A DNA stretch of 64,000 nt from Peptococcaceae bacterium (GTDB taxonomy: Bacteria > Bacillota > Dehalobacteriia > UBA4068 > UBA4997). Each line of letters opens with the position of its first letter. Position 1 is the first letter of the stretch. This document shows positions 3,167 through 45,060 of the stretch, piece by piece. The stretch is from positions 186,060-250,059 of the forward strand of contig JAAWKH010000001.1 in assembly GCA_022797295.1 (NCBI GenBank), read 5' to 3'. The notes under the pieces are model-generated. The model was given only the letters and a program-made list of their open reading frames with translations. It did no database searches and was not told the DNA's origin. The translations under genes and the position numbers were made by a program.

Positions 3167-3604
3167 ATGACGATTACGGAAATGGTGCAAAATCAGCAGC
3201 AGCAAAGAGGCCGCGAGCTTGCTCAAAAGCAGTCTGGTAAACCGCATGTGAATCCTTATGGAACGCCGGGTATGAGCTTGAACAATGCTGGTGACTTCCG
3301 AAAGACTGTCGCCGTGGATGAAAATGTGGTGCAGCAGGTTAAACAAATTGCTTTTGATCATATGAAAAATGGTTATGGAATGAGCAATGGTGAGGATATT
3401 AGCCAGGTTATTAAAAACTATGTGCTGTCTATTGAGCCGGAGCAGCGTTTGAGCGCCTCCTGGACCTTAAATGAAATTTTTCACAAAGAGGCTGTTCGAT
3501 TGGGCGATTTTGTGCAGCAGCAAAATCCTGGCTGGAATTGGGGCGAAGCCTTTGATACCAGCATTTTAGATAACTATCAGCAGGGCTTTAATATTAAAAT
3601 ATAA
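3167..3604 (+). CDS. hypothetical protein (Gln-rich N-terminus)
   Basis: ATG preceded by AGGAGG at optimal spacing and a strong promoter. No recognisable domain. Confidence 0.5.
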   Translation: MTITEMVQNQQQQRGRELAQKQSGKPHVNPYGTPGMSLNNAGDFRKTVAVDENVVQQVKQIAFDHMKNGYGMSNGEDISQVIKNYVLSIEPEQRLSASWTLNEIFHKEAVRLGDFVQQQNPGWNWGEAFDTSILDNYQQGFNIKI

Positions 3605-3618
3605 TTGCGGATAAAGAA

Positions 3619-4338
3619 ATGCAGGAAAGATTACAGAAAATTTTGGCGCAGCATAATGTGGCCTCTCGTCGGGCGGCGGAACAGTTGATTTTAGCTGGTC
3701 GAGTTCTGCTAAATGGCCAGGTGGCGCAGTTGGGCGATAAGGCGGACGCAGTTGAGGATGAAATTTTGCTGGATGGCAAGCCGTTGCCGCCTTTGGCTGG
3801 TTTACGCTATTTTTTGCTTTACAAGCCGGCAGGCTATATCACTAGCGCGCACGATGAAAGAGGCCGCCGCACAGTGTTGGATTTGCTGCCTGTAGACGGC
3901 GAGCGTTTATATCCGGTGGGCCGTTTGGATTATGCAACCTCCGGTGTGTTGTTGCTGACAAATGACGGAGAGCTGACTCAGGCCTTGTTGCATCCTAAGG
4001 GAGAGATTACGAAAGTTTACCAATGTGCGGTAAAGGGTGCGCTTACGATAGAAAAATTGCGCCAGCTTGAGCAAGGCGTTTTGCTTGACGATGGTTGGAC
4101 GGCCCCTGCCAAGGCCTGCCGACTGAAAGAAAATGTGCTGGAGTTGGCTATTCATGAGGGGCGTAACCGTCAGGTACGCCGGATGATGGCCGCTTTGGGT
4201 TTGGAGGTTATTTGGCTGAAAAGGGTTAGTTTTGCCGGCTTAACCTTGCAGGGATTGAGGCCTGGCCAGTGGCGAGAGTTAACCGCGCCAGAGTTGGACA
4301 GGCTGCTCCGGCTAAAGGCGTGTGGACAAAATATATAA
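3619..4338 (+). CDS. rluB: rRNA pseudouridine synthase (S4 + RsuA/RluB family)
   Basis: N-terminal S4 domain and VGRLDYATSGVLLLTNDGEL catalytic motif. Confidence 0.8.
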   Translation: MQERLQKILAQHNVASRRAAEQLILAGRVLLNGQVAQLGDKADAVEDEILLDGKPLPPLAGLRYFLLYKPAGYITSAHDERGRRTVLDLLPVDGERLYPVGRLDYATSGVLLLTNDGELTQALLHPKGEITKVYQCAVKGALTIEKLRQLEQGVLLDDGWTAPAKACRLKENVLELAIHEGRNRQVRRMMAALGLEVIWLKRVSFAGLTLQGLRPGQWRELTAPELDRLLRLKACGQNI

Positions 4339-4372
4339 AAACATATAATAAACAAGATGGAGGCGAGGGACG

Positions 4373-4870
4373 ATGACAGAAATTAAAAGAAAAGGCGAAA
4401 ACACTGAGGAAAGAATGGAAATGGCCTATGAGGGCGCTCGTGGCTATTTTCGGCAGGGCTTAAACTGTGCAGAGTGTGTGCTTAAAGCTTTTATGGAGGT
4501 TTATGATACCGGCTTGCCTGCAGAAAGCGTGGCGATGGCCACTGGTTTTGGCGCTGGATTGGGGCACACCAAGGAGGGTGTTTGCGGAGCCATCTCTGGT
4601 GCGGTTATGGCTTTAGGCACTGTTAAGGGCCGTCGGAACCCAATGGAGGGCGAGGATATGGCGGAGCGAGTGGCTAAGCTCCAGCAGGAAATTTATCCGC
4701 TGTTTGGCGATTTGGTGCGGGAAATTCAAGCGGCCAATAATGGTTGTTTGCTATGCAAGGATTTGGTGGCGCCTTTTGAGGATTTCAACGATAAACCGCG
4801 CAAAAAATTCTGTATGCAGATGATTGCTGAATGTGCCAAGATGGCAGCTAAGCATGCAGATAAGGAATAA
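4373..4870 (+). CDS. C_GCAxxG_C_C family redox protein
   Basis: CAECVLKAF and GVCGAISGA motifs characteristic of the C_GCAxxG_C_C family. Confidence 0.6.
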   Translation: MTEIKRKGENTEERMEMAYEGARGYFRQGLNCAECVLKAFMEVYDTGLPAESVAMATGFGAGLGHTKEGVCGAISGAVMALGTVKGRRNPMEGEDMAERVAKLQQEIYPLFGDLVREIQAANNGCLLCKDLVAPFEDFNDKPRKKFCMQMIAECAKMAAKHADKE

Positions 4871-4906
4871 ATAAATTTAAACATATGAAATTGGAGGGCG
4901 AACATT

Positions 4907-5452
4907 ATGGAGGCAGAAAGAACCCGCTTGCAGCAGGGAATGGTTCAGGTTTACACCGGCAATGGCAAAGGCAAAAGCACAGCGGCTTTTGGTTTGGCTT
5001 TGCGGGCAGCCGGCTGCAATATGCATGTGGTGATTATTCAATTTATGAAAGTGAGCGGTCATTATGCCGAGGATGAGGGCATTCGCCGTTTGGGTGAAAC
5101 TGTGGAGCATTATTGCTTTGGTAATCCGGGTTGGGTGAAAAAGGGCGAGGGCAGCGAGGCTGATTATGCCCAGGCCAAGGCTGCTATGGACAAGGCCCGC
5201 GAGGCTTTGCAGGACCCTGACGTGGATATTGTGATTTTGGATGAGATTAACAATGCGCTTTACTTTGAGCTGGTGACAGAGGCTGAGGTTTTGGAGCTGA
5301 TGAAAAACAAGCTGCCTAATATTGAGCTGTTGATGACCGGCCGCAACGCGCCGGACGCGATTATGGAAGCTGCTGATTTGGTGACGGAAATGCGCGAGGT
5401 TAAGCATTACTACACCAAAGGCGTGCCGGTGCGTCGGGGAATTGAGTTTTAA
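4907..5452 (+). CDS. cobO: cob(I)yrinic acid a,c-diamide / cob(I)alamin adenosyltransferase
   Basis: GMVQVYTGNGKGKSTAAFG P-loop region typical of CobO/BtuR. Confidence 0.8.
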   Translation: MEAERTRLQQGMVQVYTGNGKGKSTAAFGLALRAAGCNMHVVIIQFMKVSGHYAEDEGIRRLGETVEHYCFGNPGWVKKGEGSEADYAQAKAAMDKAREALQDPDVDIVILDEINNALYFELVTEAEVLELMKNKLPNIELLMTGRNAPDAIMEAADLVTEMREVKHYYTKGVPVRRGIEF

Positions 5453-6025
5453 ATGCAGCAAAAGACAATGGATGTTCAGTTATATTTTGATACGGAAGAT
5501 TTGGGGCCGCACCGTTCGACCAGCCATCCGCTTTTTCGTCAATATTTTGCAGATGATTTGTATTATGATTGCTGTGATGAGGACGCGCCTTTTGGCAGCG
5601 ATGAGGGAAACGACACTCTGTGGGAGCTTCAGAACATTCTGCGCAAAAAACAGGATGTGAACTTTGCTGATTTTCCCCGCTGGATGATTGAGGACGAATG
5701 GGGGCTGACTTATCTGCCGCCGCAAAGCGGGCAGACTGACGAACAGCTGTTGGAGCTGGCGGCCCAAAGCTATAACGGCCTGCCTGGCGATATGGAGCTG
5801 CTGAACACTGTGCAGGTTATTTTGGCGGCTGCCTTTGGCCAGCTGAAAATCGTCGGACAGCTGGACGAGGCTCTGCAAGCTTTGGCTTTTCTGGCTTTGG
5901 ATCGTTGGGAAAAAATGTACCGACTTTTATATGGCTGGTCTGAGGCGGAGCCGCCATATAATATAAGAATTATGCGGCGTGATTTAACGGTGTATGCAAA
6001 CAGCCGAAAGAGGTTGGAAGAATGA
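5453..6025 (+). CDS. hypothetical protein
   Basis: ORF starts on the cobO stop codon. No recognisable domain. The start may instead be ATG 5468. Confidence 0.4.
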   Translation: MQQKTMDVQLYFDTEDLGPHRSTSHPLFRQYFADDLYYDCCDEDAPFGSDEGNDTLWELQNILRKKQDVNFADFPRWMIEDEWGLTYLPPQSGQTDEQLLELAAQSYNGLPGDMELLNTVQVILAAAFGQLKIVGQLDEALQALAFLALDRWEKMYRLLYGWSEAEPPYNIRIMRRDLTVYANSRKRLEE

Positions 6026-7296
6026 CAAACGTTTTGGTGATTGGCGGCGGCGCTGCCGGTTGCATGGCGGCGATTACAGCAGCCAAGGCGGGTGCGACTG
6101 TGACCCTTTGGGAAAAAAATGACCGCCTGGGCCGTAAACTAGCCATAACCGGCAAAGGCCGCTGCAATGTTACCAATGCTGCTCCGATTAATGAGCTGAT
6201 TGCTAATATCACCGGCAACGGCCGTTTTATGCACAGCGCTTTTGCAGCCTTTGATAATCAGGCTGTGATGGATTTTTTTGAAGGGTTGGGCGTGCCCTTA
6301 AAGGTAGAGCGTGGGCAGCGTGTTTTTCCGCAATCCGATAAAGCGGCTGATGTGATTTCCGCTTTGGAAAGAGAACTGAAACGTTTAAAAGTGGAAGTTT
6401 GCTTCAACACCTCAGCGCGACGATTGCTGTTGGCAGAAACAGCCGAGAGCCGGCAGGTGGTTGGTGCAATTTCCTCAGATGGCCGCAAAAAACAGGCAGA
6501 CGCGGTTATTTTAGCAACTGGCGGCGCAACCTATCGGGCAACTGGCAGCAGCGGCGATGGTTATGCTTTGGCAGCAGCGGTTGGGCATCGCATAATTGAG
6601 CCTTTGCCAGCATTGGTTCCGTTGGTAGCTGCTGAACCTTGGGTGGGCGAACTGGCTGGGCTTTCTCTGCGCAATGTGGAATTTAGCCTTTATAAAAATG
6701 GAATGGCAAGCAAAAAAAACTTGCTAGTTAAACTTTTTGGCGAGTTGCTTTTTACTCATTTTGGCCTTTCTGGTCCGGTAGTGTTGACCGCCTCCCGACA
6801 GGCGGCGCTGTTTTGGCGGGACAATCCAGAGCAGCAGTTGCTGGCGCAGCTCAATTTGAAGCCGGCGCTGACGCAGGAGCAACTGAATGCTCGTTTGGAG
6901 CGAGAGTTGGCAGCAGGCCCCAAACGCCATTTACACAATGTTTTGGCGGACTGGTTGCCTAAATCATTAATTTTCCCTTTTTGTCAGCAGGCAGGCTTGC
7001 CGGCAGATAAGCCGCTGAACGCTTTACAACATAAGGAACGGCAGCAACTTCTTCAAACTATTCAGGCTTTGCCGATTAGCTTAATTGGTACTAGGCCGTT
7101 GAATGAGGGTATTGTAACCTGCGGTGGAGTGTGCGTTAAGGAGGTTAATCCCAAAACCTTTGCTTCCAAGCTAGTTGCTGGATTGTTTTTTGTGGGCGAA
7201 CTGTTGGATGTTGACGCGCTGACTGGTGGTTATAATTTACAGATAGCATTCAGCAGTGGGCATGCAGCTGGAATGGCAGCAGCTTTGCCAAGATAA
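6022..7296 (+). CDS. NAD(P)/FAD-dependent oxidoreductase, HI0933/BaiN-like flavoprotein
   Basis: N-terminal VLVIGGGAAGCMAAITAAKAG FAD fold and HI0933-like length. Confidence 0.75.
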   Translation: MTNVLVIGGGAAGCMAAITAAKAGATVTLWEKNDRLGRKLAITGKGRCNVTNAAPINELIANITGNGRFMHSAFAAFDNQAVMDFFEGLGVPLKVERGQRVFPQSDKAADVISALERELKRLKVEVCFNTSARRLLLAETAESRQVVGAISSDGRKKQADAVILATGGATYRATGSSGDGYALAAAVGHRIIEPLPALVPLVAAEPWVGELAGLSLRNVEFSLYKNGMASKKNLLVKLFGELLFTHFGLSGPVVLTASRQAALFWRDNPEQQLLAQLNLKPALTQEQLNARLERELAAGPKRHLHNVLADWLPKSLIFPFCQQAGLPADKPLNALQHKERQQLLQTIQALPISLIGTRPLNEGIVTCGGVCVKEVNPKTFASKLVAGLFFVGELLDVDALTGGYNLQIAFSSGHAAGMAAALPR

Positions 7297-7313
7297 TGCT
7301 AGTTGTTAAATCA

Positions 7314-7356
7314 TAAAAAAACAGGCTGCTTTGAAACATAAGCAGTCTGTTTTTTA
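7314..7356. terminator. bidirectional rho-independent terminator between convergent genes
   Basis: CAGGCTGC...GCAGTCTG stem (one G-U wobble) flanked by an A-run on one side and a T-run on the other. Confidence 0.7.
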
Positions 7357-7371
7357 TGATTGTTATATTTT

Positions 7372-7638
7372 TTATTCAGCAGTGTAGGGCAGCAAAGCCA
7401 CGATGCGGCTGCGCTTGATAGCGTCAGTCAGCATACGCTGATGCTTGGCGCAGTTGCCAGAAACACGGCGGGGTAAAATCTTACCACGCTCAGTGATATA
7501 GTTGCGCAGGCGTGCAGTGTCTTTGTAGTCAATATACTGCGCTTTGTCAACGCAGAAGCGGCAAACACGACGACGGCTGCGGCGGCCACGATTGCCACGG
7601 AAAGGACGTCTTTCCTCCCTAGCTTTTTCTTCAGCCAT
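7372..7638 (-). CDS. rpsR: 30S ribosomal protein S18
   Basis: Typical S18 sequence (RRRVCRFC..., YKD...[16 protein letters not shown]). Confidence 0.9.
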
Positions 7639-7693
7639 GGGTCTTTCCTCCTTATATTATTGCAGTTAGCTGCAAAGTTTTCAATTAAATTTG

Positions 7694-8128
7694 TTAAAAC
7701 GGTAAATCATCGCTGGTGAGAGGCGCTGTGTTTTCAAAACTGTTGATGGCGCCCAGGTTAGGGGATTCATAGCCAGTGTTATTGCTGTTGCTGGAGGCAT
7801 TGCCCTCGTTGCGAGAGGACAAAAAGCGCACATTGTCCGCGATAACTTCAGTTACATAACGACGTTGACCGTCATTGCCATCATAGGAACGAATTTGCAG
7901 GCGGCCATCCACTGCGGCCAGTCGGCCTTTAGCCAAATACTGAGCGCAGTTTTCACCTTGTTTGTTCCAAACTACGATATTAATAAAATCCGTTTCCCGA
8001 TTGCCTTCCTGGTTGGTGAAAGGTCTATCCACAGCCAGGGTGAAAGAACAAACGGCGTGGCCGTTTGGCGTAAAACGCAGTTCAGGGTCTCGGGTTAATC
8101 TGCCGATTAAAACAATTCGGTTTAACAT
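7694..8128 (-). CDS. ssb: single-stranded DNA-binding protein
   Basis: OB-fold SSB sequence with acidic C-terminal tail ending DDLPF. Confidence 0.9.
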
Positions 8129-8140
8129 AAATCACACCTC

Positions 8141-8428
8141 TTATTCAGGCAAACGAGTGACAAGATAACGCAGAACGCTATCTGCAATTCGGAAATTACG
8201 CTCCAGTTCTTGCGGTAATTCCGGCTCAGCTTTAAAGGTTACCAAAACATAGTAGCCTTCGCGAAGTTTCTCGATTTCATAGGCAAGCTTTCTTTTGCCC
8301 CAAATATCGGTTTTCACAACTTCGCCGCCATTTGCCTGAATCAATGCGTTGAACTTTTCCACAGCAGCAGTATATTCCTCCTCGGTCATTTCCGGGCGCA
8401 GAATATATAAAGCCTCGTAATCACGCAT
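8141..8428 (-). CDS. rpsF: 30S ribosomal protein S6
   Basis: Typical S6 sequence. First gene of the rpsF-ssb-rpsR operon. Confidence 0.9.
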   Translation of the reverse strand: MRDYEALYILRPEMTEEEYTAAVEKFNALIQANGGEVVKTDIWGKRKLAYEIEKLREGYYVLVTFKAEPELPQELERNFRIADSVLRYLVTRLPE

Positions 8429-8564
8429 GTCAGCACCTCCCTTCGGACTTCTGGCTGTTTCAGATTAAACTAAAACAGCAGGGATAATTTCACTCGGTGA
8501 GCCGTTTTTTTAAGCTTTTACAGCCCATCTTTTATATTATAGCAGATGTTTTTGCCAAAAACAA
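8429..8564 (-). promoter_or_regulatory. rpsF promoter (TTGTTT-17-TGcTATAAT) and ~100-nt structured leader (candidate S6:S18 autoregulatory leader)
   Basis: Minus-strand -35 at 8559-8564 and -10 at 8536-8541 with TG extension. Leader contains the hairpin GCUGUUU...AAACAGC and ends in GGGAGGUG before the ATG. Confidence 0.5.
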
Positions 8565-8598
8565 GCCCCTAAAGGCAAAAATTCTCAGAAAAAAACAC

Positions 8599-8648
8599 TT
8601 GCAAAAAAAACGTATGTTCGTTATAATATTAAAAGAACGATTGTTTGT
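8599..8648 (+). promoter_or_regulatory. sigma-A promoter (TTGCAA-17-TATAAT) with two LexA/Cheo-box-like sites
   Basis: -35 at 8599-8604 and -10 at 8622-8627. AAACGTATGTTCG (8608-8620) sits in the spacer and GAACGATTGTTTG (8635-8647) near +1. Both are 1-2 mismatches from GAAC-N4-GTTC. Confidence 0.6.
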
Positions 8649-8678
8649 GATTTGTTAGGTGCTGGAGAGTGTTGCTTT

Positions 8679-9953
8679 ATGAATATGAAAAATAGAACTT
8701 ATCTTTGCATTGATCTTAAATCATTCTATGCCTCGGTGGAATGTGTGGAACGTGGCTTGGATCCTATGACGGCCCGTTTGGTGGTGGCCGATCCTGAGCG
8801 TGGTCCTAAAACCATTTGTTTAGCTGTTACGCCAGCCTTAAAAGCTTTGGGGATTGGTGGGCGTTGCCGTGTTTTTGAAATTCCGCCAGCTTTGGATTAT
8901 ATTATGGCGCCGCCTAGAATGCAGCTTTATATTGATTATGCAGCTGAGATTTACGGTATTTATCTTCGTTATATTGCTAAGGAAGATATTCATGTTTATT
9001 CAGTGGATGAAGCTTTTTTAGATGTGACTCCTTATCTGCATACCTATGGCTTGACGGCTAAACAGTTAGCCTTAAAGTTGATGGATGAGATTTTGACAGA
9101 AATTGGCGTGCGGGCAACCTGTGGTATTGGCAGTAATTTGTATCTAGCTAAAATCGCTTTGGATATTACAGCCAAGCATTCTGATGATTTTATTGGTGAG
9201 CTGGATGAATATAGCTATCGGGAAAAGCTTTGGCAGCACAGGCCGCTGACAGATTTTTGGCGTGTGGGCCGTGGTACTATGCAGCGTTTAGCTGCTTATG
9301 GTATTTATACTATGCAGCAAGTGGCTCAAGCTGACGAGGCGTTGCTTTATAAGCTTTTTGGTATTGATGCGGAATTGTTGATTGACCACGCCTGGGGACG
9401 CGAGCCAGTGACGATTGCGGATATCAAGGCCTATCAGCCCAAGACTAACTGTTTAAGCAGTGGTCAGGTTTTGATGCGGGATTATTCTTTTGCAGAGGCC
9501 TGTTTAATTGTTAAGGAAATGGTTGATCAACTTTGTCTTGAACTGTTGGATAAACAGTTGGTTACGGCTTCGCTTAGTATTTATGTGGGATATAGCAACA
9601 ACTTGCACGCCGCAGCTTCTAAAGGTTCAGCCTGTTTGGCTTCAGCGGTCAGCTCTGATAAGGTCTTGATTCCGGCGGCAGTTGGTTTGTTTGAACAGAT
9701 TGTAGATAAAGACAAGCCAGTGCGTCGTATTAATATCAGTTTTAGTAATTGCTTGCCGGAGGGTAACCGGCAATTAAGCTTGTTTGATAATTTGGATGTA
9801 GTTTTGCAAAAAAATCAGCAGGTGCAAAGGACAGTTTTGCATTTGAAAAAGAAGTTTGGTAAGAATACTATTCTAAAAGGTATGGATTTGTCGCCGGCAG
9901 CGACTGCCAAAGAGCGTAACTGTCAGATTGGAGGACACAAAAGTGGGAACTAA
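8679..9953 (+). CDS. Y-family (UmuC/DinB-like) translesion DNA polymerase
   Basis: CIDLKSFYASVE, SVDEAFLDVT and GIGSNLYLAKIA motifs of Y-family polymerases. ATG at 8679 with GGAGAG upstream. Confidence 0.8.
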   Translation: MNMKNRTYLCIDLKSFYASVECVERGLDPMTARLVVADPERGPKTICLAVTPALKALGIGGRCRVFEIPPALDYIMAPPRMQLYIDYAAEIYGIYLRYIAKEDIHVYSVDEAFLDVTPYLHTYGLTAKQLALKLMDEILTEIGVRATCGIGSNLYLAKIALDITAKHSDDFIGELDEYSYREKLWQHRPLTDFWRVGRGTMQRLAAYGIYTMQQVAQADEALLYKLFGIDAELLIDHAWGREPVTIADIKAYQPKTNCLSSGQVLMRDYSFAEACLIVKEMVDQLCLELLDKQLVTASLSIYVGYSNNLHAAASKGSACLASAVSSDKVLIPAAVGLFEQIVDKDKPVRRINISFSNCLPEGNRQLSLFDNLDVVLQKNQQVQRTVLHLKKKFGKNTILKGMDLSPAATAKERNCQIGGHKSGN

Positions 9954-10293
9954 ACCGAAAGGTAAAATGCCAGTGATTGAACGAGCTAAGCAGTTTATGC
10001 CATTTGCAGCCGTGCGTGGCTTGCAGTTGGCATTGCGCCGCAAGGAGCAAGAGTTAGTTCAGGTGCCGCCTAAAATTATGGCAGAGGAGGCTGCCGCTGA
10101 GCTGGACGCTAAGCTGCGTCAACTTTATAAAGGCAGGCCAGTGCTTATAACCTACTTCTTTGCTGGTAATTATCAAAAAGTTAGTGGTAAGGTTTTGCGT
10201 TTGGATAACGTACATTGTCAGTTGCTTTTGCAAGGGAAAGATGAACGTTGGCAGATAAACTTTTCTGATATAATAGATTTGGTTTTGGTATAG
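9943..10293 (+). CDS. YolD-like protein (accessory partner of Y-family polymerases)
   Basis: Small protein immediately downstream of and overlapping the polymerase gene, as yolD/yqjX does in Bacillus. GTG at 9943 has GGAGGA 7 nt upstream, but the start could instead be ATG 9964. Confidence 0.55.
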   Translation: MGTKPKGKMPVIERAKQFMPFAAVRGLQLALRRKEQELVQVPPKIMAEEAAAELDAKLRQLYKGRPVLITYFFAGNYQKVSGKVLRLDNVHCQLLLQGKDERWQINFSDIIDLVLV

Positions 10294-10315: not shown

Positions 10316-13300
10316 TTAATCTATGCTTGATAAAATAATGTTGGTATCAGCAGCGATAGTGTATGTGTGCGAGCAACCAGCCTCCAGCATATTTGAATAG
10401 TACCAACTGTCAGGTAGATTGTCTGACCAGTTAGGCAGCTCTTGTTCGTTTATTAAATGCTCAGTACAAGATGTACGATTGAATAACAAATTAAGCAAGG
10501 TTACAGCTTCCGCGCGACTGATTGGTTGATTGGGCCTGAAGCTGCCGTCAGGATAGCCGTGTAATAAGCCGAGATCAGTTGCCTGATTAATGACATCTGC
10601 TGCCCAATGTTCTGCAATATCAGGAAAGGCTTTTGAAATTGAGCGCCCAACAGGGCTAGGTTCATCACTTGTTTGTAAATTATATATACGTATGGCAAGT
10701 GTGGCTAATTCTGCTCGTGTTAGGTAGGAGTTGGGTTTAAAACTGCCATCCTGGTAGCCTTGCAGCAAGCTGTTCTGTTTAAGAAAATCAACAGCAGTGT
10801 CATACCAATTTATTTCAGCGCTTGTTACTGTTTCAGAAGCGTTTGGATTTAGCAAACGATAAAGCATAACTGCTGCTTCTGCTCTGCTTAAATAAGCGTT
10901 TGGTCGTATGGTGCCATCACCATAACCATTAATATAAGCAAAATGTAAAAGTTGCTGATTGTTGGATGTTTGAATAGCTTCTTCTGGTTGAGATTGCGTT
11001 GGTTGTTTTTGTATGCTTCCAGAGCTACTGCTGCTAGGTCTGTTATCTGGATGGTTTTCAGGATAGCCCTCTTGCCAGACGGCATAAAGTGTGATGCTTG
11101 GCTGATTTTGACTTAATATTATTTGATTTCCTGCTTGGTAAATTGTTTCGCTGTTTGTGGGGGTTAATGCCCAACCTATGAAAGTGTAACCGTTTCGCTT
11201 TGGCTTTTCAGCCGTTATTTCAAATTGGTATTTTTCAGCTGTGCTGTAGCAAATTTGTTCCGCTGGTGTATCAAAACCGCCATTGCTATGGTAATACAGG
11301 CAATAAGCTGTTTCTAGCGGCTCTTGCAGGGGAGGTTGAGGAGTGCCAGGTTCTGGTTTTAAGTTATCGTTCAGTTGCCAAACTGCGTAGAGAGTTAGCT
11401 CTGGCGTTTCTTTATAAAGAAGAATTTGGTCTTCCGGTTGATATACTGCGTAATTAGCATTAGCTTGAGGAGCCCAGCCAATAAATTTGTAATTGTGGCG
11501 TGTTGGCTCTTCTTTGGGGATGAAAAAAGTATAGTTTTCAGTTTGAGCAGTAGCTGTTTGAGGGTAAGGCGCGTTGACGCCACCATTGCCGTTAAAGGAA
11601 AGCTTGTATTGATAAAGAGGGAGAGGTGGTGCAGGTTCGGTGCAAATTAGCTTAAAGCAAGGAAGATGTGAGTTGTTTGTTTGCCAGTTTTGTGTTGAGC
11701 TTTTATAATATAATTGTACGGTTTGCTCGTTTTCAGCCCCTAATACAAGCTTGTGCGGGCCATATGTTGTGTTGTATCGTTCAATGTAAGGTTGGGCCTG
11801 AAAGGTTAGCAAACAGCAATATCCGCTGTTGGAATAAGGCAGGCTTGGGCCAATTTGCAGGCCGTTTTGTTCCAGATTTAGGCCAATAGGATAATGCTCC
11901 GTTTGGCTGGCATTGATACATTCTAGTTGAATAGGCGTTGACGTACCTAGAATTTGCGCCAGTTCAGCATAAGTAGGCCTGGCTGGCGCGTGGCAATTTA
12001 TTATGAAAGTGCTATTATAATTGGGCGTTGTAATCCAGGCCTTGTTTTCTTCATCATAAAATAAGGTTAATAACTCCTTAGCTGATGAGTAAGTTGCTAT
12101 CAGCTTGTGGCCGTCTATTCTGGTGTTGTAATCATTCAGATAAGCGGATGGTTTGATGTTTAGGGTGGCGGTAAAATTGTTACTGTTTGTTTGATTGATG
12201 TGAAAGCTGTAGCTGTTTTCTTTAAGTGCATAGCTGAAAGTTAAATGCCCAGCCGCAGTGTTAGCACATTCAAGTTTTACGGCTTCAGATCCTAAAAGCT
12301 CTTTTAGATAGCTATAAGTGGGCTCGTCTGGCAATTTCTGCCAAACAGCGTAAAGTATGGTTTGCTTTTCAGTGGTGATTAAACTGCCGCCAGGCTGGCA
12401 AATTGCTTGTGTTGCGTTGGCCTCTAGGGCCCAACCTAAAAATTTGTAATTAATGCGTTGTGGTATTATTTCTGAAATTGTAAATAGACAATTTGTTTCT
12501 GTGCCGGAGGCGTGTTGTTCGGCAGGAGTGTTAAAACCACCGTTGACGTTGTAATAAAGTGTATATTCAATCGGTTCCGGCTCGGGCGGTTGTTCCTGTT
12601 CTTGCCAGATAGCGTAAAGTACATTTTGTTCATTTAGTGCCAGAAAAACCTCATTTGGCTGAAATTTGGCAATCAATGCGTCAGCGTCTGTATGCCAGCC
12701 TAAAAAATTCCAACCAGGGCGAACTGGTTTTGCCTCTGTTATGGTAAACACATGAAAAAAATCGAAGTCATATTCAATTTGCGGTTCGGGAGCTGTGCTG
12801 CCGCCGTTAGCGTCATATATTAATATATAGCAATGTTCAAGCGGTTGTGGATTATCCTCTTGCCAAATAGCATAGAGAGTGGTTTGCGAATTAATAGCCC
12901 AAAATTCATCGCCAGAGAGAAATTCAGCAGACAGAGCTTCTGAAGAAGTACTCCAGCCTAAAAAAATATAACCAGCTCGCACGGGTTCGTCAGAGCTGAT
13001 TGTGAATTGACAGAATATTTCTGTCGTTTGTTTGGTTTGTGTTGTAGGTGCCTGTTCGCCACCGTTAGCGTCATAAAGCAGCGTGAAGGTTTGAACCGGT
13101 AACGCTTGGTTTGATTGCCAAACTGCATAAAGAATGGTTAGGGGTGTGTTTGAAAAAAAGATTTCGCCGGGCTGATATTCAGCTTGGATGGCATTGGGAG
13201 TGGTGGCCCAGCCAACAAATGTATTATCTGCCAGATTGGGAGTTTCATAAGAAATATAAAAGATGTTGGAGGTGTTCTGTTGCAAAGCCGGTGCATTATC

Positions 13301-13450
13301 ACCGCCGTTAGCGTCATAGATTAAAAAATATTGCGGAACGATTTCTTCATTGCTTGCTGGAATAATATTGTTTGCCATAACCGGGGTGTTGAATAAAAAA
13401 ATCTGCGTTAAAATTACGCAGAGATACAAAGAGAATTTTATTTTTTTCAT
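10316..13450 (-). CDS. large secreted surface protein: signal peptide, 6 Listeria-Bacteroides-type repeats, 2 novel ~115-aa Cys-containing repeats, Pro/Ser linker, 3 C-terminal SLH domains
   Basis: N-terminal MKKIKFSLYLCVILTQIFLF signal sequence. Repeated ...LYDANGG..AP...F.GW....A....G......TLYAVWQ units. C-terminal FAYINGYGDGTIRPNAYLSRAEAAVMLYRLL-type SLH motifs x3. GGGGTG RBS. Confidence 0.8.
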   Translation of the reverse strand: MKKIKFSLYLCVILTQIFLFNTPVMANNIIPASNEEIVPQYFLIYDANGGDNAPALQQNTSNIFYISYETPNLADNTFVGWATTPNAIQAEYQPGEIFFSNTPLTILYAVWQSNQALPVQTFTLLYDANGGEQAPTTQTKQTTEIFCQFTISSDEPVRAGYIFLGWSTSSEALSAEFLSGDEFWAINSQTTLYAIWQEDNPQPLEHCYILIYDANGGSTAPEPQIEYDFDFFHVFTITEAKPVRPGWNFLGWHTDADALIAKFQPNEVFLALNEQNVLYAIWQEQEQPPEPEPIEYTLYYNVNGGFNTPAEQHASGTETNCLFTISEIIPQRINYKFLGWALEANATQAICQPGGSLITTEKQTILYAVWQKLPDEPTYSYLKELLGSEAVKLECANTAAGHLTFSYALKENSYSFHINQTNSNNFTATLNIKPSAYLNDYNTRIDGHKLIATYSSAKELLTLFYDEENKAWITTPNYNSTFIINCHAPARPTYAELAQILGTSTPIQLECINASQTEHYPIGLNLEQNGLQIGPSLPYSNSGYCCLLTFQAQPYIERYNTTYGPHKLVLGAENEQTVQLYYKSSTQNWQTNNSHLPCFKLICTEPAPPLPLYQYKLSFNGNGGVNAPYPQTATAQTENYTFFIPKEEPTRHNYKFIGWAPQANANYAVYQPEDQILLYKETPELTLYAVWQLNDNLKPEPGTPQPPLQEPLETAYCLYYHSNGGFDTPAEQICYSTAEKYQFEITAEKPKRNGYTFIGWALTPTNSETIYQAGNQIILSQNQPSITLYAVWQEGYPENHPDNRPSSSSSGSIQKQPTQSQPEEAIQTSNNQQLLHFAYINGYGDGTIRPNAYLSRAEAAVMLYRLLNPNASETVTSAEINWYDTAVDFLKQNSLLQGYQDGSFKPNSYLTRAELATLAIRIYNLQTSDEPSPVGRSISKAFPDIAEHWAADVINQATDLGLLHGYPDGSFRPNQPISRAEAVTLLNLLFNRTSCTEHLINEQELPNWSDNLPDSWYYSNMLEAGCSHTYTIAADTNIILSSID

Positions 13451-13684
13451 AGATTTCTACACCCCAAATTGTAATATATTTTCAGTGGAAAATGGTTAGT
13501 AGATTTTTAAGTTTTTGACTATTCTTTATTAAAAATCTGATATTATTGCTTATTATAATACTTTTCATTGTTTTTCGCAAGCCTTTTTTGGTATTTTTTT
13601 CCAAATGAACAGATAATTGGAATTGTATTTATAAAGTATTTTGTATTTTATAATGTTTTTGGGGCAAATCTACAAAATAAATAT

Positions 13685-13734: not shown

Positions 13735-15099
<1,365 letters not shown>

Positions 15100-15115
15100 A
15101 TTTTATTTGTTGATA

Positions 15116-15149
15116 AAAGCTGTCTGCTTGTTTGCAGGCAGCTTTTGTT
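15116..15149 (+). terminator. rho-independent terminator of gdhA
   Basis: AGCTGTCTGC-TTGTTT-GCAGGCAGCT stem-loop followed by TTTTGTT. Confidence 0.7.
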
Positions 15150-15180
15150 AATAAAAATCAGTAAGGGAGTTGTTGAATAA

Positions 15181-16023
15181 ATGTCTGTTAACGTGACGAT
15201 TAAATTGGCCGATCCGAAAAATGAATTGCAGATTAAAGATGTTCTTTTCAAAGGTATGCGTTATGGTATTATGGATGCTGCCTATAGATTGTCTGAAAAT
15301 GAAATTGGGGAAGTGATGGTTATTTTTAGTGAGGCCAATCTTTGCCGTGGATATGAGATTACATTGCCGCCAGGACAAATAGAGCTGCGCTTGCCAATTC
15401 CCACTAGCGATACGGATATTCGTTTTTTCTATAGTTTGGTGCAAAAGTTGTGCCAAAAGTTTGCAACAACTGATTTTTGGCGCGAGGATGAAAAGGGTAG
15501 CTTTGCGGAAATTCCTGATTATATTAAAGAGGATATTGGTTTAAGCGAGCGAACTTTGCTGATGATGGAGGAGGAAATTGATGCTGGCAAGTTTAATTCC
15601 TTGTATCTTTTTGGCGTTCTCAATCCGATTGCGATCAGCAAAAATGATTTACGGGAAATTGACGGCAGCTTGCAGAAACTGGCAGATTTTTTTCAACGGC
15701 ATCAAGCAATGGATGTTTACTATGCTAAACCTAGTGTTTACCAAAAAAATAACGAAAGCTTGTTTGGCGTGTATGTTCTGTCGGAAGATGTAGTGTCAGT
15801 TTTGCCTAATAAGCCTGGTTTGTTTATGGGACCTAAGGATATGCAGATAGCTGATTGGTATGTTGCCTTTGTTATCGATGATGATTTGGCTGGGACAATT
15901 TCCTATGCCGATTTTTTAGCCGACACTGAACCAAGCGCCGAATATGATGTTGAACATTTTATTATAAGTCTGAATAAAAGGCAGATGACCAAATTGCTGA
16001 GTTTTCATGCCGTACAGCCTTAA
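15181..16023 (+). CDS. hypothetical protein (280 aa, no domain recognised)
   Basis: Long ORF with its own terminator downstream. GGGAG lies 11 nt upstream of the ATG. Confidence 0.5.
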   Translation: MSVNVTIKLADPKNELQIKDVLFKGMRYGIMDAAYRLSENEIGEVMVIFSEANLCRGYEITLPPGQIELRLPIPTSDTDIRFFYSLVQKLCQKFATTDFWREDEKGSFAEIPDYIKEDIGLSERTLLMMEEEIDAGKFNSLYLFGVLNPIAISKNDLREIDGSLQKLADFFQRHQAMDVYYAKPSVYQKNNESLFGVYVLSEDVVSVLPNKPGLFMGPKDMQIADWYVAFVIDDDLAGTISYADFLADTEPSAEYDVEHFIISLNKRQMTKLLSFHAVQP

Positions 16024-16035
16024 ACAGTTTTAAGC

Positions 16036-16078
16036 AAAAGCCCTTTGCCGAAAATTTTTTCAACAAAGGGCTTTACAA
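16036..16078 (+). terminator. rho-independent terminator
   Basis: AAAGCCCTTTG...CAAAGGGCTTT inverted repeat followed by T-rich sequence. Confidence 0.6.
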
Positions 16079-16113
16079 ATTGCCTAAAAAATGGTATAGT
16101 ATATAGGTATTCT

Positions 16114-16187
16114 GCGGGTGTAGTTTAATGGCAGAACAAGAGCTTCCCAAGCTTTTAGCGAGGGTTCGATTCCCTTCACCCGCTCCA
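16114..16187 (+). tRNA. tRNA-Gly (anticodon CCC)
   Basis: Cloverleaf folded by eye. Acceptor stem GCGGGTG/CACCCGC, anticodon loop TTCCCAA, T-loop GGTTCGATTCC, 3' CCA encoded. Confidence 0.85.
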
Positions 16188-16193
16188 TTTGAA

Positions 16194-16224
16194 AAGGTTG
16201 TCTGTTGCAGGCAGCCTTTTTGTG
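16194..16224 (+). terminator. rho-independent terminator after tRNA-Gly
   Basis: GGTTGTCTG-TTG-CAGGCAGCC stem (with G-U pairs) followed by TTTTT. Confidence 0.65.
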
Positions 16225-16434
16225 TATATAAATTCAGGAAATGAAAGCAATAAAATGAGAGATTTTATTAAAGATTTTACGCAAGCAATACAAAGCTTAT
16301 TATAGTTGATTATACCAACAATATTTTTTCTGGAAATTATCTTTTTAGGAGGCAAATTTTTGACGAAACTATTTTAGGCAGTGTTGTCCGAAAAGATAAT
16401 GAGCCGATGTTTGGTAGTTAAAATATATTTAGCA

Positions 16435-16469
16435 GAATGCGGCCATTTTCTAGGAAAATGGCCGCATTC
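16435..16469 (-). terminator. terminator of the glnN-amt operon (perfect 15-bp stem)
   Basis: GAATGCGGCCATTTT-CTAGG-AAAATGGCCGCATTC located just downstream (minus strand) of the amt stop codon. Confidence 0.7.
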
Positions 16470-16507
16470 GCTTGAGTATGAAAGAGTATTAACTTGATAG
16501 ATTCTAA

Positions 16508-18214
16508 TTATTTGTCAATTTCTGGATACTGTAAGGCGTCAAATCCCTCCTTACCGCTGCGCACCTGAATAACGTTCTGCACGTCATAAACGAAAATTTT
16601 GCCATCGCCGTATTCGCCAGAGTAGAGCACTTGTTTAGCAACTTCAACAATCGCATTTACGGGCACTTTAGAAACGATAACCTCCACCTTAACCTTAGGC
16701 ACAAGCTTAGTTTCCATAGCGATGCCGCGGTAAAACTCTGTGGCTCCTTTCTGCAAACCGCAGCCCATAACCTCAGTGACGGTCATACCTGTAACGCCTA
16801 GGGCTGATAAAGCATTTTTTAGGGCTTCAAAGCGAGTGCGCCGGGTGATGATAACCACCTTACTGATACCGCTGTTGCAGGTTGCTGTTTCTGGAATAGT
16901 TTCCGCAGAATTGGGCAGTTTGACCGGAGCAATGTTGTTGTTCTGTGGTTCTGTATCTTCATAAATATTGTGAGTGACGGACATAAAATCTGCATAGGAG
17001 CTTACCAAACCATGTTCAGTAATATCTAAACCGGCAATTTCTTCGGCTGTGGTAACACGCAGGCCAATAGTTTTTTTCAGTATATTAAAGATGATAAACA
17101 TTGTAACGGCCACCCAGGCGATAACACTGACAACGCCCAAGGTTTGCACTGCTAGAAAATGTATGCCATTGCCATAAAGCAATCCTTCATCTATGGAAAA
17201 CAAACCAAGCAACAATGTGCCGCTAGCGCCGCAAACCCCGTGAACCGCAATGGCGCCAACCGGATCGTCAATTTTCAGCACTTTATCAATAAACTCAACC
17301 GCAAACACCACCAGCACGCCGCAGATAGCTCCAATAAGGGCCGCGCCTAGCGGCGAAACTGCGTCGCAGCCGGCGGTGATACCCACCAAACCGGCTAAAG
17401 AGCCGTTCAAGGTCATCGAAACATCTGGTTTGCCGTAACGTACCCAAGTCAACAGCATAGTAATCAAGGTGGCAGTTGCAGCGGACAGGTTGGTTGTTAC
17501 AAAAATGGAAGCAGCTGATGTGGCGCTTTCCAGAGAGGATAGGGCAGTGGTTGAACAGCCGTTGAAGCCGAACCAGGCAAACCAAAGGATGAATACGCCT
17601 AATGCTCCAAGGGTTAGGCTATGGCCGGGAATGGCATGGCTTTTGCCGTTGCTGTCATATTTGCCAATACGAGGCCCAATGCAGGCAGCTCCAACTAGCG
17701 CGGCTACGCCGCCAACCATATGCACGGCGGTGGAACCGGCAAAATCGTGAAATCCCAGCTGGCTTAACCAACCGCCTCCCCAAATCCAGTGGCCGGAAAC
17801 GGGATAAATGCAAGCGCTGATAAGCAATGAATACAGACAATAGGTGGAGAATTTAGTGCGCTCGGCCATTGCCCCTGATACAATCGTGGCGGCTGTGGCA
17901 CAGAACACTGTTTGAAAGATGATAAAAGCAAATGAGGTGTAGCCGCTTTCAGCGCCATAATCGTTGCGGATTAAAAAATCCGGTGTGCCGATTATTCCGG
18001 CAATATCAGAACCAAACATTAAGCCAAAGCCCAGCAGCCAAAAGATAACACTACCAATCGCAAAATCCATTAAGTTTTTCATAATGATGTTACCGGCATT
18101 TTTGGCTCTGGTAAAACCGGTTTCCACCATTGCAAAGCCGGGCTGCATAAAAAACACCAATGCAGCGCCTAGCAACACCCAAAGAGTATCCAGTCCGATA
18201 ATAATTTCTTCCAT
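16508..18214 (-). CDS. amt: ammonium transporter (Amt) fused in-frame to a C-terminal nitrogen regulatory PII (GlnB/GlnK-like) domain
   Basis: N-terminal Amt transmembrane region (FFMQPGFAMVETG...). C-terminal ~112 aa match PII (GMTVTEVMGCGLQKG..., GDGKIFVYDV...). ATG at 18214 has GGAG 9 nt upstream. The ORF is continuous. Confidence 0.8.
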   Translation of the reverse strand: MEEIIIGLDTLWVLLGAALVFFMQPGFAMVETGFTRAKNAGNIIMKNLMDFAIGSVIFWLLGFGLMFGSDIAGIIGTPDFLIRNDYGAESGYTSFAFIIFQTVFCATAATIVSGAMAERTKFSTYCLYSLLISACIYPVSGHWIWGGGWLSQLGFHDFAGSTAVHMVGGVAALVGAACIGPRIGKYDSNGKSHAIPGHSLTLGALGVFILWFAWFGFNGCSTTALSSLESATSAASIFVTTNLSAATATLITMLLTWVRYGKPDVSMTLNGSLAGLVGITAGCDAVSPLGAALIGAICGVLVVFAVEFIDKVLKIDDPVGAIAVHGVCGASGTLLLGLFSIDEGLLYGNGIHFLAVQTLGVVSVIAWVAVTMFIIFNILKKTIGLRVTTAEEIAGLDITEHGLVSSYADFMSVTHNIYEDTEPQNNNIAPVKLPNSAETIPETATCNSGISKVVIITRRTRFEALKNALSALGVTGMTVTEVMGCGLQKGATEFYRGIAMETKLVPKVKVEVIVSKVPVNAIVEVAKQVLYSGEYGDGKIFVYDVQNVIQVRSGKEGFDALQYPEIDK

Positions 18215-18255
18215 TGTAAAATCACTCCAATTTAGTATAGTAAAAAAATTTATAT

Positions 18256-18301
18256 AAAAAAGACGTGCTTTGCGAGGAGAAACCTCACTTGGCACGTCTT
18301 T
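18256..18301 (-). terminator. intergenic hairpin/terminator between glnN and amt
   Basis: Minus strand AAAGACGUGCCAAGUGAGG-UUUC-UCCUCGCAAAGCACGUCUUUUUU. Confidence 0.55.
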
Positions 18302-18321
18302 GTGTCGAATTGTAAAAAAAT

Positions 18322-20409
18322 TTAATAGAACAAAAGCTGACTATAGGTGGGGAAAGGCCAGTATTTAGCGGCGCACAGACCCTCCAGCTTATCAGCAACA
18401 GCTCGCAGCTCATTCATTTTTGGCAAAACAGTGTCGTGATAGTACATTGCTTTAGCCTCTGAGCTTGGTAAATCGCTGTTGTTCAGCAAACTCTGCAAGT
18501 CGGTAATATTTTGAGATAGGTTATCAGTGCATTCGGAAATTTGAGTTAATAATTTTTCCTCAGCAACATAACCAACGCCAGCAATTTGTTTTTTAGCCAG
18601 CAGGCAATCGGCTAATTCGTGTGAATAGGTGAGAACAGCCGGTAAAATTTCGGTTTGAGCCATCTCTAGCATAGTCAAAGCTTCAATATGCAAAACCTTG
18701 TGGTACTCATCCATAATACTTTCTGCACGCGCTTGCATTTCCTTGCGGCTGTAAATACCTTGACGAGCAAACATAGCCACGTTTTTGGTTTCCATGTAGT
18801 GTGGCAAAGCCTCAGGTGTGGATTTTAGATTTAGCAAGCCGCGCTTTTCAGCTTCATCAACCCATTCTGGTGAGTAATTGTTGCCGTTGAAGATAATACG
18901 TTTGTGAGCGAGCAGCTGTTTTTTTAGGAATTTATTAAGGGCTTCGTCAAATTCAGCCGGGTCAACAGTTTCTAACTCATCAGCAAATACGCACAAGGTG
19001 TCGGCCACAATGGCATTCAAGATGATATTTGGGCAAGCCAGCGAGAAGCCGGAGCCTAACATTCTAAATTCAAATTTGTTGCCGGTGAAAGCAAAGGGGG
19101 AAGTGCGGTTGCGGTCGGTGCTGTCCTTGGGCAGTTTGGGCATAGCGCGCACTCCAAAATCCAGATAATCATTGCCCAGCTCCTCATAGGTTTTGTCGTT
19201 GGCCAAAGATTCAATAACTGCTTCCAGTTCATCACCGATAAAAACTGAAACAATGGCCGGCGGGGCTTCATTGGCGCCTAAACGGTGGTCGTTGCCAGCG
19301 CTGGCAACAGAAATACGCATCAAATCCTGATAATCATCCACTGCTTTGATGATAGCAGTTAGGTACGTTAGGAACTGCATGTTTTCGCGTGGTGTTTTGC
19401 CAGGCTCCAGTAGATTTTCACCCAAATCAGTAGCTATAGACCAGTTGTTATGTTTGCCTGAACCATTTACACCTTCAAAAGGTTTTTCGTGAAGCAGACA
19501 GGTCAGGCCGTGTTTGGCAGCCACCTTTTTCATCATTTCCATCACCAGCTGATTGTTATCTGTGGCGTTGTTGGTGGTGGAGTAAATGGTTGCCAACTCA
19601 TGTTGGGCAGGAGCCACCTCATTATGCCGAGTTTTGGCTAAAATGCCAAGCTTCCAAAGCTCTTCGTCCAAGTCCTGCATAAAATTGATAACGCGAGGCC
19701 GGATAGCGCCGAAATAATGGTCTTCCAGCTCTTGCCCTTTGGGAGGCATTGCGCCAAAGAGGGTGCGGCCGGTGAAGCGCAGATCCGCCCTTTGTTTAAA
19801 CATTTCCGCATCAATTAGGAAATATTCCTGCTCCGGCCCAACCGTGGTGCTGACGTGGGTGGCTTCAGTGTTGCCAAACAGGCGCAAAATGCGCAGGGCT
19901 TGTCTGTTGATAGCTTCCATTGAACGCAGCAGAGGAATTTTTTTATCCAGCACCTCGCCGCCATATGAGCAGAATGTGGTGGGGATACACAGGGTGTTAT
20001 CCTTGATGAAAGCGTAAGATGTTGGGTCCCAGGCGGTGTAACCGCGCGCCTCAAAGGTGGAGCGCAAACCGCCGGATGGGAATGAGGAGGCGTCTGGCTC
20101 GCCCTGGATTAAGTTGCGGCCGGAAAACTCCATAATCACGTTGCCACCTTCAGTGGGCTCAATAAAGCTATCGTGTTTTTCTGCGGTGAAGCCGGTTAAA
20201 GGCTGGAACCAATGGGTGTAGTGGGTTACTCCTTTCTGGATCGCCCAGTCCTTCATGGCCACCGCAACGGATTCTGCCAGGGAAGGGTCAAGTGGGTTGC
20301 CGGATTGAATGGTTTTTTTCAAAGCTTTGTAAACAGCTTTGGGCAAGCGTTCCTTCATTACGTTTTCATTAAAGACATTGCTGCCAAACAACTCAGGAAC
20401 ATTAGACAT
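18322..20409 (-). CDS. glnN: glutamine synthetase type III
   Basis: ~700-aa GS with type III N-terminal region. ATG at 20409 preceded by GGAGGTG. Confidence 0.85.
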
Positions 20410-20446
20410 AAAATGCACCTCCAAAATTTCTTCCAATCTTTTTATT

Positions 20447-42463: not shown

Positions 42464-42548
42464 AAATGGCGAATTATATATAGTTACGTATTTTTATTGT
42501 TATGACTTTAATGCGTCGACGTTAATGGGACAGAGAGGAGGCAAGAAA

Positions 42549-44045: not shown

Positions 44046-44073
44046 GTTTTTTTGATTGGCGGAGGCTTGGTTT

Positions 44074-45060
44074 ATGGAGAAAGCGATGATTGCTTTGGCA
44101 GCGGCGTTTGCTGTGGCTGTGCTGTTGGGCCCGGTTTTAATTGCCGGGCTTAGGGTGCTGAAATTTGGACAAACCATTCGAGATGATGGGCCAAAAAGAC
44201 ATTTGCTGAAATCTGGCACGCCAACAATGGGCGGGGTTATCTTTTTGCTGCCCTTTGTGCTGGCTTCGTTGCTGCTGACTGACAGATCGCCGGTGGTGAT
44301 GCTGTTTGTTGGCACAGTGTTGCTTTTTGGCTTGATTGGTTTTGTGGATGATGGTATTATTGTTATGCTACATCGTTCCTTGGGTTTGACAGCCAAACAA
44401 AAACTATTGCTGCAATTTGTTTTCGCTTTTGGTTTCATTTACTTGGCCGAACAGCATTTGGGGCGTGGTACGGATTTGATTTTTCCTGTCACTGGCTATA
44501 AATGGGAGCTGGGCTGGGTATATTATCCTTTGCTGGCCACTTATATGGTGTTTATTGTAAATGCGGTTAATTTAACGGATGGTTTGGACGGTTTGGCCGG
44601 GGGTATCAGTTTTTTGGTGCTGCTGGGCTATTTGCTTATTTGTTTGACCGCGTCCTTGCAGCCGCCGTTGCCTGGTTTGGATTATCAAATGCTGGCAATG
44701 ACGGCGGCCGCTTTGGCTGGTGGCTTGCTTGGCTTTTTGCTTTTCAACAAATATCCGGCTAAAGTTTTTATGGGAGACACAGGCTCTCTGGCTTTGGGCG
44801 CGGCGGTGTTTGCGCTGGCGATACTCACCAAAACCGAAGTTGTTTTTGTGCTATTGGGTTTAGTGTATATTGTGGAAGCGCTTTCGGTGGTTATTCAGGT
44901 GACTAGCTTTAAGCTTTTTGGCCGCCGGGTGTTTAAGATGAGCCCTTTACATCATCATTTTGAGATGTGCGGTTGGAGCGAGGTGCGTATTGTGCGCAGC
45001 TTTTGGGCGGCAGCAGCTCTTTTTGTGCTGCTGGGTCTGTTGCTTTTAGCGATAAGCTGA
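44074..45060 (+). CDS. mraY: phospho-N-acetylmuramoyl-pentapeptide-transferase
   Basis: Typical MraY membrane protein. ATG 44074 lies 8 nt after GGAGG. Confidence 0.9.
   Translation: MEKAMIALAAAFAVAVLLGPVLIAGLRVLKFGQTIRDDGPKRHLLKSGTPTMGGVIFLLPFVLASLLLTDRSPVVMLFVGTVLLFGLIGFVDDGIIVMLHRSLGLTAKQKLLLQFVFAFGFIYLAEQHLGRGTDLIFPVTGYKWELGWVYYPLLATYMVFIVNAVNLTDGLDGLAGGISFLVLLGYLLICLTASLQPPLPGLDYQMLAMTAAALAGGLLGFLLFNKYPAKVFMGDTGSLALGAAVFALAILTKTEVVFVLLGLVYIVEALSVVIQVTSFKLFGRRVFKMSPLHHHFEMCGWSEVRIVRSFWAAAALFVLLGLLLLAIS

Follow-up and report, generated by a model that had tools for sequence, protein, structure and literature searches.

An SLH-domain repeat protein of a gut-type Clostridia bacterium contains two copies of an unnamed extracellular tandem-repeat domain with a conserved Cys-His-His-Cys signature

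The DNA analysed here is a stretch of 64,000 nucleotides (nt) from contig JAAWKH010000001.1 of assembly GCA_022797295.1 (positions 186,060 to 250,059 of the forward strand), which we call the window and in whose numbering coordinates are given unless another contig is named. It comes from an uncultured gut-type Clostridia bacterium, whose label, Peptococcaceae, places it in the Bacillota, class Clostridia. The gene in question lies on the minus strand and encodes a 1044-amino-acid (aa) protein built of repeats and SLH domains, in the middle of which stand two copies of a module that we show to belong to a large family of extracellular tandem-repeat domains, as yet without a name. The translated product is identical to GenBank MCI9043998.1, a 'hypothetical protein [Peptococcaceae bacterium]' from a metagenome-assembled genome (MAG), and the identical protein is named 'uncharacterized repeat protein (TIGR02543 family)' in IMG/JGI. 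The gene and the protein segments that it encodes are as follows.

13552..13580, minus strand: promoter-like site TTGCGA-17-TATAAT, from a consensus scan (10/12 matches), ~100 nt upstream of the ATG
10316..13450, minus strand: complete coding sequence with ATG start, 1044 aa plus stop codon, from the open reading frame (ORF) listing
13373..13450, minus strand: putative Sec signal peptide, aa 1-26, recognised by eye from a basic n-region (KKIK), a hydrophobic core and an A-x-A-like site after VMA
12332..13342, minus strand: Flg_new repeats 1-4, aa 37-114, 118-199, 204-285 and 292-373, from Pfam PF09479 and a local hidden Markov model (HMM)
11981..12334, minus strand: central 'CHHC' module copy 1, aa 373-490, with signature residues C395, H402, H448, W472 and C486
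11618..11980, minus strand: central 'CHHC' module copy 2, aa 491-611, with signature residues C511, H519, H566, W589 and C603
11066..11620, minus strand: Flg_new repeats 5-6, aa 611-694 and 712-795, from Pfam PF09479 and a local HMM
10973..11065, minus strand: low-complexity linker rich in Ser, Gln and Pro, aa 796-826 (S8 Q7 P5 in aa 794-836, a slice of 43 aa that includes it)
10445..10972, minus strand: three SLH domains, aa 827-880, 881-940 and 948-1002, from Pfam PF00395 and a local HMM
10319..10444, minus strand: C-terminal tail of 42 aa after the third SLH domain, with no domain match

From the N-terminus the protein thus consists of a putative signal peptide, four Flg_new repeats, the two central modules, two further Flg_new repeats, the Ser/Gln/Pro linker and three SLH domains. 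An earlier note on this DNA, made from the sequence by eye, had described the same 1044-aa ORF and the same architecture, and both were confirmed, with Pfam and NCBIfam matches to the known domains; the domain boundaries, taken here as the envelopes of local HMMs built from the protein's own domains, fall within a few codons of the coordinates given in that note. The Flg_new family was found in six stretches, well above its curated Pfam cutoff (PF09479; E 1.9e-41, 140.5 bits against a cutoff of 27), and the corresponding NCBIfam model, TIGR02543 List_Bact_rpt, scored 67.5 bits against a cutoff of 20.95. SLH domains were found in three stretches (PF00395; E 2.7e-32, 110.9 bits against a cutoff of 20.8). 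The N-terminal sequence, MKKIKFSLYLCVILTQIFLFNTPVMA/NN, shows on inspection the n/h/c pattern typical of Sec signal peptides. No enzymatic domain and no recognised adhesive tip was found above threshold in the protein with Pfam, and its N-terminus opens directly with Flg_new repeats.

SLH triplets bind wall polymers non-covalently, and the TRAE-type SLH motif has been implicated in the binding of pyruvylated wall polymers. A (T/S)RAE motif can be read from the translation in every SLH domain of the protein (SRAEAA, TRAELA and SRAEAV), and this, together with the Bacillota label of the host, points to anchoring through a wall polymer as the expected arrangement. The earlier note took SLH anchoring to imply either an S-layer or an outer-membrane-tethered envelope, neither of which is shown by these data. 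The protein could itself be an S-layer protein that self-assembles into a lattice, and not an individual stalk or adhesin, a possibility that agrees with its triple SLH domains, its size of ~110 kDa, its putative signal peptide and a monocistronic gene preceded by a promoter-like site and a leader of ~100 nt. However, it has no recognisable self-assembly domain, its beads-on-a-string repeats and flexible linker are typical of S-layer-associated proteins and not of lattice formers, and its orthologues differ in repeat number (lengths of 1040, 1197 and 1350 aa). We therefore regard a lattice-forming role as very improbable.

The protein is of a well-known kind, an SLH-anchored repeat surface protein; what is new is the domain family at its center. 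The InlB B-repeat is the prototype of the Flg_new or Listeria-Bacteroides repeats (PF09479, TIGR02543), and the protein shares with proteins of that type six bona fide Flg_new repeats, but it lacks a leucine-rich repeat/internalin domain and an LPXTG or GW anchor, and two unrelated central modules are added. SLH-anchored proteins of Bacillota include the BSLs of Bacillus anthracis and, among clostridia, the cellulosome anchoring proteins that end in an SLH triplet. The protein resembles these in having three tandem (T/S)RAE SLH domains after a low-complexity linker, whereas its passenger consists of Flg_new repeats and the new module only, cohesins and enzymes being absent.

At 27% identity to each other (BLASTP E 7e-12 in a single comparison), the two central copies have in common the residues PTY..L...LG(S), LEC, YNT, HKL, W.T, I.C and PA, in agreement with the duplicated module and the shared residues that the earlier note had listed. 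An exhaustive HMMER search with a profile of the two copies against 1.84 billion cluster representatives (50%-identity clusters) returned 391 representatives at E <= 1e-3, 223 at E <= 1e-10 and 52 at E <= 1e-30. Among the 150 representatives listed, each protein contains 2-10 module copies in tandem. When these 150 and the query were scanned with HMMs of the query's three domain types, 73 of the 151 proteins also contained Flg_new repeats and 40 contained SLH domains, while 58 showed arrays of the module only, as far as three query-derived HMMs can see. DUF11, an LPXTG anchor and a Spy0128-type isopeptide domain were each found in individual members of a set of ten relatives scanned. Three full-length orthologues have the architecture of the query at 67%, 43% and 40% identity, the two more distant ones with additional Flg_new repeats. 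With respect to the 67% orthologue, the modules are 64-72% identical and the Flg_new and SLH regions 62-72%. None of the relatives that we looked up bears a functional name; for one of them, a 1623-aa protein with six module copies (P0031), SLH was the sole precomputed Pfam hit. A 1623-aa relative with six modules and three SLH domains is encoded at positions 3477-9872 of a 2.5-Mb contig (L086), just downstream of a resolvase-family recombinase gene and a small helix-turn-helix gene, an arrangement that may point to control of this surface protein by inversion or phase variation.

Neither Pfam nor NCBIfam has a model for the module, as scans of the query, of the ten relatives and of 86 diverse copies taken singly showed, and searches of the PDB by sequence, with the protein as well as with the profile, gave nothing credible for it; the antibody and de novo protein matches in the profile search were spurious short matches. 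The module is also not a relative of the Flg_new repeats beside it, since hhalign against the protein's own repeats gave a probability of only 1.2%. A literature search on the assembly accession, and on Flg_new together with SLH, found nothing specific. The domain search and the structure prediction that the earlier note had proposed as checks thus found no known domain and, as described below, a confidently predicted fold with no solved relative. The claim that the central module matches nothing recognised was therefore borne out, by sequence and by fold. The module is novel in the sense that it belongs to no curated family and no solved structure, but it is not peculiar to this protein, given the 391 representatives that carry it.

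A model of copy 2 alone, computed with AlphaFold2 (AF2) from the alignment of the 86 copies, reached a mean predicted local distance difference test score (pLDDT) of 92.3 and a predicted template-modelling score (pTM) of 0.84. Its elements follow in the order helix, strand, short strands, long hairpin strand, helix and four strands, and the module is confidently predicted to adopt a compact alpha/beta fold of an N-terminal helix, a beta hairpin, a second hairpin, a helix and four strands. The tandem pair was modelled with a pLDDT of 90.0 and a pTM of 0.76, and the two copies share one topology. So high a pTM in a two-domain model suggests that the copies are oriented rather rigidly to each other, as would suit a rod-like stalk. 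A Foldseek search of the module model against the PDB and the BFVD viral models found nothing at E <= 1e-3, with template-modelling scores (TM) no higher than ~0.3; the novelty of the fold is accordingly stated relative to solved structures.

One known family came up repeatedly. Of the 86 copies, 11 matched PF25155 (NTF2_YvbJ) at E < 0.1 (best 0.0018) over the hairpin-helix-strand part, a multi-copy relative reached a summed score of 27.4 bits, above the cutoff of 25, and an NTF2-like protein was the top Foldseek match of the module, at E 0.1 and TM 0.26. However, copy 1 of the query scored 15.9 bits against the cutoff of 25, copy 2 gave no match and no single stretch passed; moreover, the secondary-structure order of the module is not that of the classical cone of three helices followed by a sheet, and the structural comparison lends the link no support. 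We rejected membership of the module in NTF2_YvbJ because all single-stretch matches were sub-threshold, although this recurrent similarity may reflect a remote relationship.

To define the residues that characterise the family, we aligned 523 near-full-length module copies, which are phylogenetically non-independent. Seven columns are nearly invariant: C26 (99%), H33 (97%), H81 (99%), W104 (99%), C119 (96%), P8 (95%) and Y69 (94%). They give the family signature P-x17-C-x6-8-H ... Y ... H ... W ... C, and 475 of the 523 copies are C-H-H-W-C at the five Cys, His and Trp positions. The spatial arrangement of these residues was approached by mean-field direct-coupling analysis (DCA; ~450 effective sequences, gap-poor columns, zero-sum gauge), which placed the first strand parallel to the last in the register 22-115 / 24-117 / 26-119, strand 81-86 antiparallel to the last strand (85-116, 84-118, 81-119), and a tight hairpin after C26 (27-34, 25-35, 22-38). 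These strand and hairpin contacts would bring all four Cys and His residues to one edge of the sheet.

Two readings of this cluster were weighed. The earlier note had suggested a disulfide-stabilised fold, in which the Cys of the first strand would be bonded to that of the last and the conserved His residues would have another role. Both Cys are 96-99% conserved, DCA makes them neighbours on adjacent parallel strands, and covalent links between first and last strands are common in Gram-positive stalk domains. However, the two Cys are not lost together, C119 alone being absent in 21 copies, C26 alone in 3 and both in 1. Of the 22 substitutions at C119, 18 introduce His or Glu (binomial p 9e-10 against a background of 20%, a value that is optimistic since the copies are not independent). 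The commonest variant, C119 to His, occurs in 15 copies from 12 proteins with a median identity of 25% among them, and 13 of these 15 keep the other three residues. The number of Cys per copy also shows no even bias (247 even and 276 odd), half of the copies having a third Cys at a buried-looking strand position with no partner column. In addition, a disulfide leaves two equally invariant His residues unexplained, and by its label the host belongs to an anaerobic family of clostridia. We therefore consider the disulfide the weaker reading and probably wrong.

A Cys2His2 structural metal site fits these observations better, and we favour it on the strength of the invariant His pair, the exchanges of C119 for His or Glu, the lack of joint Cys loss and the lack of an even Cys bias in the aligned sequences. 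Across the four candidate ligand positions, 27 of 45 substitutions are to His, Asp, Glu or Cys against a background of 20%, the few substitutions of C26 and H81 being mostly to Asp or Glu. Exported proteins of anaerobic Firmicutes, unlike those of aerobic ones, do not exclude Cys (PMC2823432), so that free or metal-bound thiols on the surface of such a cell are plausible. An isopeptide or ester cross-link in the module was rejected, since there are no conserved Lys, Asn, Asp, Gln or Thr columns.

These observations lead to a reading of the protein as a whole, to which we would give slightly better than even chances: a Sec-exported, SLH-anchored protein of the stalk type with putative metal-clamped central modules. 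The protein would be exported through Sec and held non-covalently on the cell wall by its three C-terminal SLH domains, from which the flexible Ser/Gln/Pro linker would lead to eight globular modules in a row. In each central module the four Cys and His residues at the sheet edge would coordinate a structural metal ion, with Zn2+ as the most plausible candidate, and this ion would tie together the first strand, the hairpin, the middle strand and the last strand. Such an ion would have a stabilising role like that of the isopeptide bonds, ester bonds, disulfides or Ca2+ sites of other Gram-positive stalk domains, and the new module would be a further stalk-type element, rigidified by its Cys2His2 metal ion.

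Several points weigh against this reading. The substitutions of H33 show no enrichment of ligand residues (3 of 15). About 450 effective sequences are shallow for DCA, and couplings between near-invariant columns are unreliable. The placing of C26 beside C119 on parallel neighbouring strands is also compatible with a disulfide, and the proximity of the predicted ligands comes from DCA, an indirect indicator. Finally, the argument for a stalk role is made from analogy and domain position only.

That argument is as follows. Flg_new is treated as a stalk domain in surveys of fibrillar adhesins (PMC9210967), and the protein combines tandem stalk domains with a surface anchor (six Flg_new repeats and SLH), as fibrillar adhesins do in the definition of Monzon et al. 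(PMC9210967); of the recognised adhesive domain, usually distal to the anchor, that the same definition includes, no family was found above threshold. By analogy with such proteins, a stalk-type (fibrillar-adhesin-like) surface protein, possibly an adhesin, is most likely, because neither an enzymatic nor a recognised tip domain is present and any binding must then lie in its repeats. The central module itself is assigned a probable stalk role because of its internal position and its arrays of up to ten copies, and because it evolves at the pace of its neighbours.

It might instead be that the central module is the adhesive or ligand-binding part of the protein, with the Cys/His cluster in a binding site or a site of metal-dependent recognition and the Flg_new repeats as mere spacers. 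The module is the sole element of the protein that is neither a known stalk domain nor an anchor, weak sub-threshold Pfam similarities include the adhesin-type Collagen_bind and DIPSY, and surveys hold that many proteins with recognised stalk domains only must hide adhesive domains not yet recognised (PMC9210967). However, these adhesin-family matches are all sub-threshold and inconsistent across members, and the module lies in mid-chain and not at the wall-distal tip. In addition, arrays of up to 10 copies, and the array-only proteins (58 of 151), are the behaviour of a stalk domain, and the module matches the adjoining domains in its degree of conservation. We consider an adhesive module unlikely.

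If the modules are indeed stalk elements, their nearest analogs are the cross-linked stalk domains of Gram-positive fibrillar adhesins, of which the CnaB/FctA domains have an isopeptide bond and the Cpe0147-type domains a Thr-Gln ester. As in those proteins, tandem modules of ~100 aa stand between the anchor and the exterior and the first strand is connected to the last through a conserved feature, and in some relatives the module occurs together with DUF11 and FctA domains. The difference lies in the fold, which is alpha/beta and not Ig-like, and in the conserved residues, which are Cys-His-His-Cys in place of Lys/Asn/Asp or Thr/Gln.

The earlier note had also warned that DNA so rich in repeats is an assembly hazard, and this was not supported. 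The repeat-coding segments are 52-58% identical at the DNA level, with a longest shared exact run of 17 nt; Tandem Repeats Finder reported nothing on the gene, and a direct-repeat search found nothing beyond patches of 19-33 nt at 60-90% identity. An index of the assembly collection lists the identical protein in 66 blocks, from which 24 contigs were read; the four places shown for it are in an NCBI MAG, in a JGI metagenome and in two separate sequencing runs. A JGI metagenome contig (L081) encodes a ~98% identical variant, also of 1044 aa, in the same gene neighbourhood, and of the 15 members listed from the protein's 90%-identity cluster (116 members in all) 13 have a length of 1044 aa. Because the repeats have diverged at the DNA level and the length of the product is constant across independent assemblies, we conclude that repeat copy number is not an assembly problem here.

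The surroundings of the gene are those of an ordinary chromosome: the window contains genes for ribosomal protein S6 and the single-stranded DNA-binding protein (SSB), a nitrogen cluster, a division and cell wall (dcw) cluster, Mur ligases, RelA and aminoacyl-tRNA synthetases, as judged from a Pfam scan of 10 larger ORFs and the labels of an identical contig. No other gene in the window carries Flg_new, SLH or the central module in a window-wide search with the three local HMMs. The gene is monocistronic, convergent with a polymerase gene pair and divergent from gdhA, and the promoter-like site upstream, identified by its consensus match alone, is a putative promoter. The convergent pair, at 8652-10293 on the plus strand, consists of a Y-family DNA polymerase gene (IMS/IMS_C) and an overlapping YolD-like gene, a translesion/mutagenesis pair, and it ends 23 nt from the stop codon of the surface-protein gene. 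On the other side, 13741-20436 is a nitrogen-assimilation cluster that encodes GdhA (plus strand), a DUF4299 protein (plus), an ammonium transporter/P-II fusion (minus) and a type III glutamine synthetase (minus), with Pfam labels taken from the identical contig (L082); the sole tRNA gene of the window, tRNA-Gly (anticodon CCC; 16114-16187, plus), lies between the DUF4299 gene and that of the transporter fusion.

GdhA is at most 77% identical to any protein in the species-representative genomes, its best matches being MAGs of Lachnospiraceae despite the Peptococcaceae label. Since it reaches only 77%, the source species is missing from that collection, and GdhA says little on taxonomy. The central module had no match in a scan of the same genomes, a collection without the source species.

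The segment 10001-14000 has the lowest G+C content of the window (0.39-0.43 against 0.43-0.50 elsewhere), and the surface-protein region has a plus-strand GC skew of ~+0.2 although the gene lies on the minus strand, its coding strand being C-rich and G-poor, unlike that of other genes. Both features probably reflect a composition rich in Gln, Pro, Thr and Asn; recent acquisition may be another source. Elsewhere in the window, the dcw cluster at 40298-50325 (plus strand) encodes a penicillin-binding protein with two PASTA domains and three Mur ligases and fits a Bacillota-type envelope. The gene at 23969-25147 (plus) encodes a 392-aa protein whose sole match is DUF6348 (E 1.1e-18). A full-length 6S RNA (RF00013, 87.3 bits) at 62626-62807 (plus) overlaps the 5' end of the listed ORF 62681-63562, and the true start of this ORF, if it is real at all, is for that reason probably further downstream.

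Most surface proteins of uncultured gut anaerobes lack annotation, and a single window here brings to light hundreds of diverged members of one domain family. In practical terms the finding is of modest weight, as the class of protein is an ordinary one, but a definition of the family would improve the annotation of fibrillar surface proteins, and the material for a Pfam-type model is in hand in the form of boundaries, a signature and 523 aligned copies. If the Cys2His2 residues bind metal, they would add a new means of stabilising extracellular stalk domains of Gram-positive bacteria to the isopeptide bonds, ester bonds and Ca2+ sites already known. We tentatively put forward, as a possibility and not as the expected outcome, that the module is an undescribed extracellular fold that binds metal through its invariant Cys-His-His-Cys and is widespread as tandem arrays on anaerobic Bacillota, where the arrays might serve as metal-dependent mechanical clamps. 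More speculatively, such arrays could be metal-sensing, redox-sensing or metal-sequestering elements, through which the rigidity or adhesion of the cell surface would switch with metal or oxygen in the gut.

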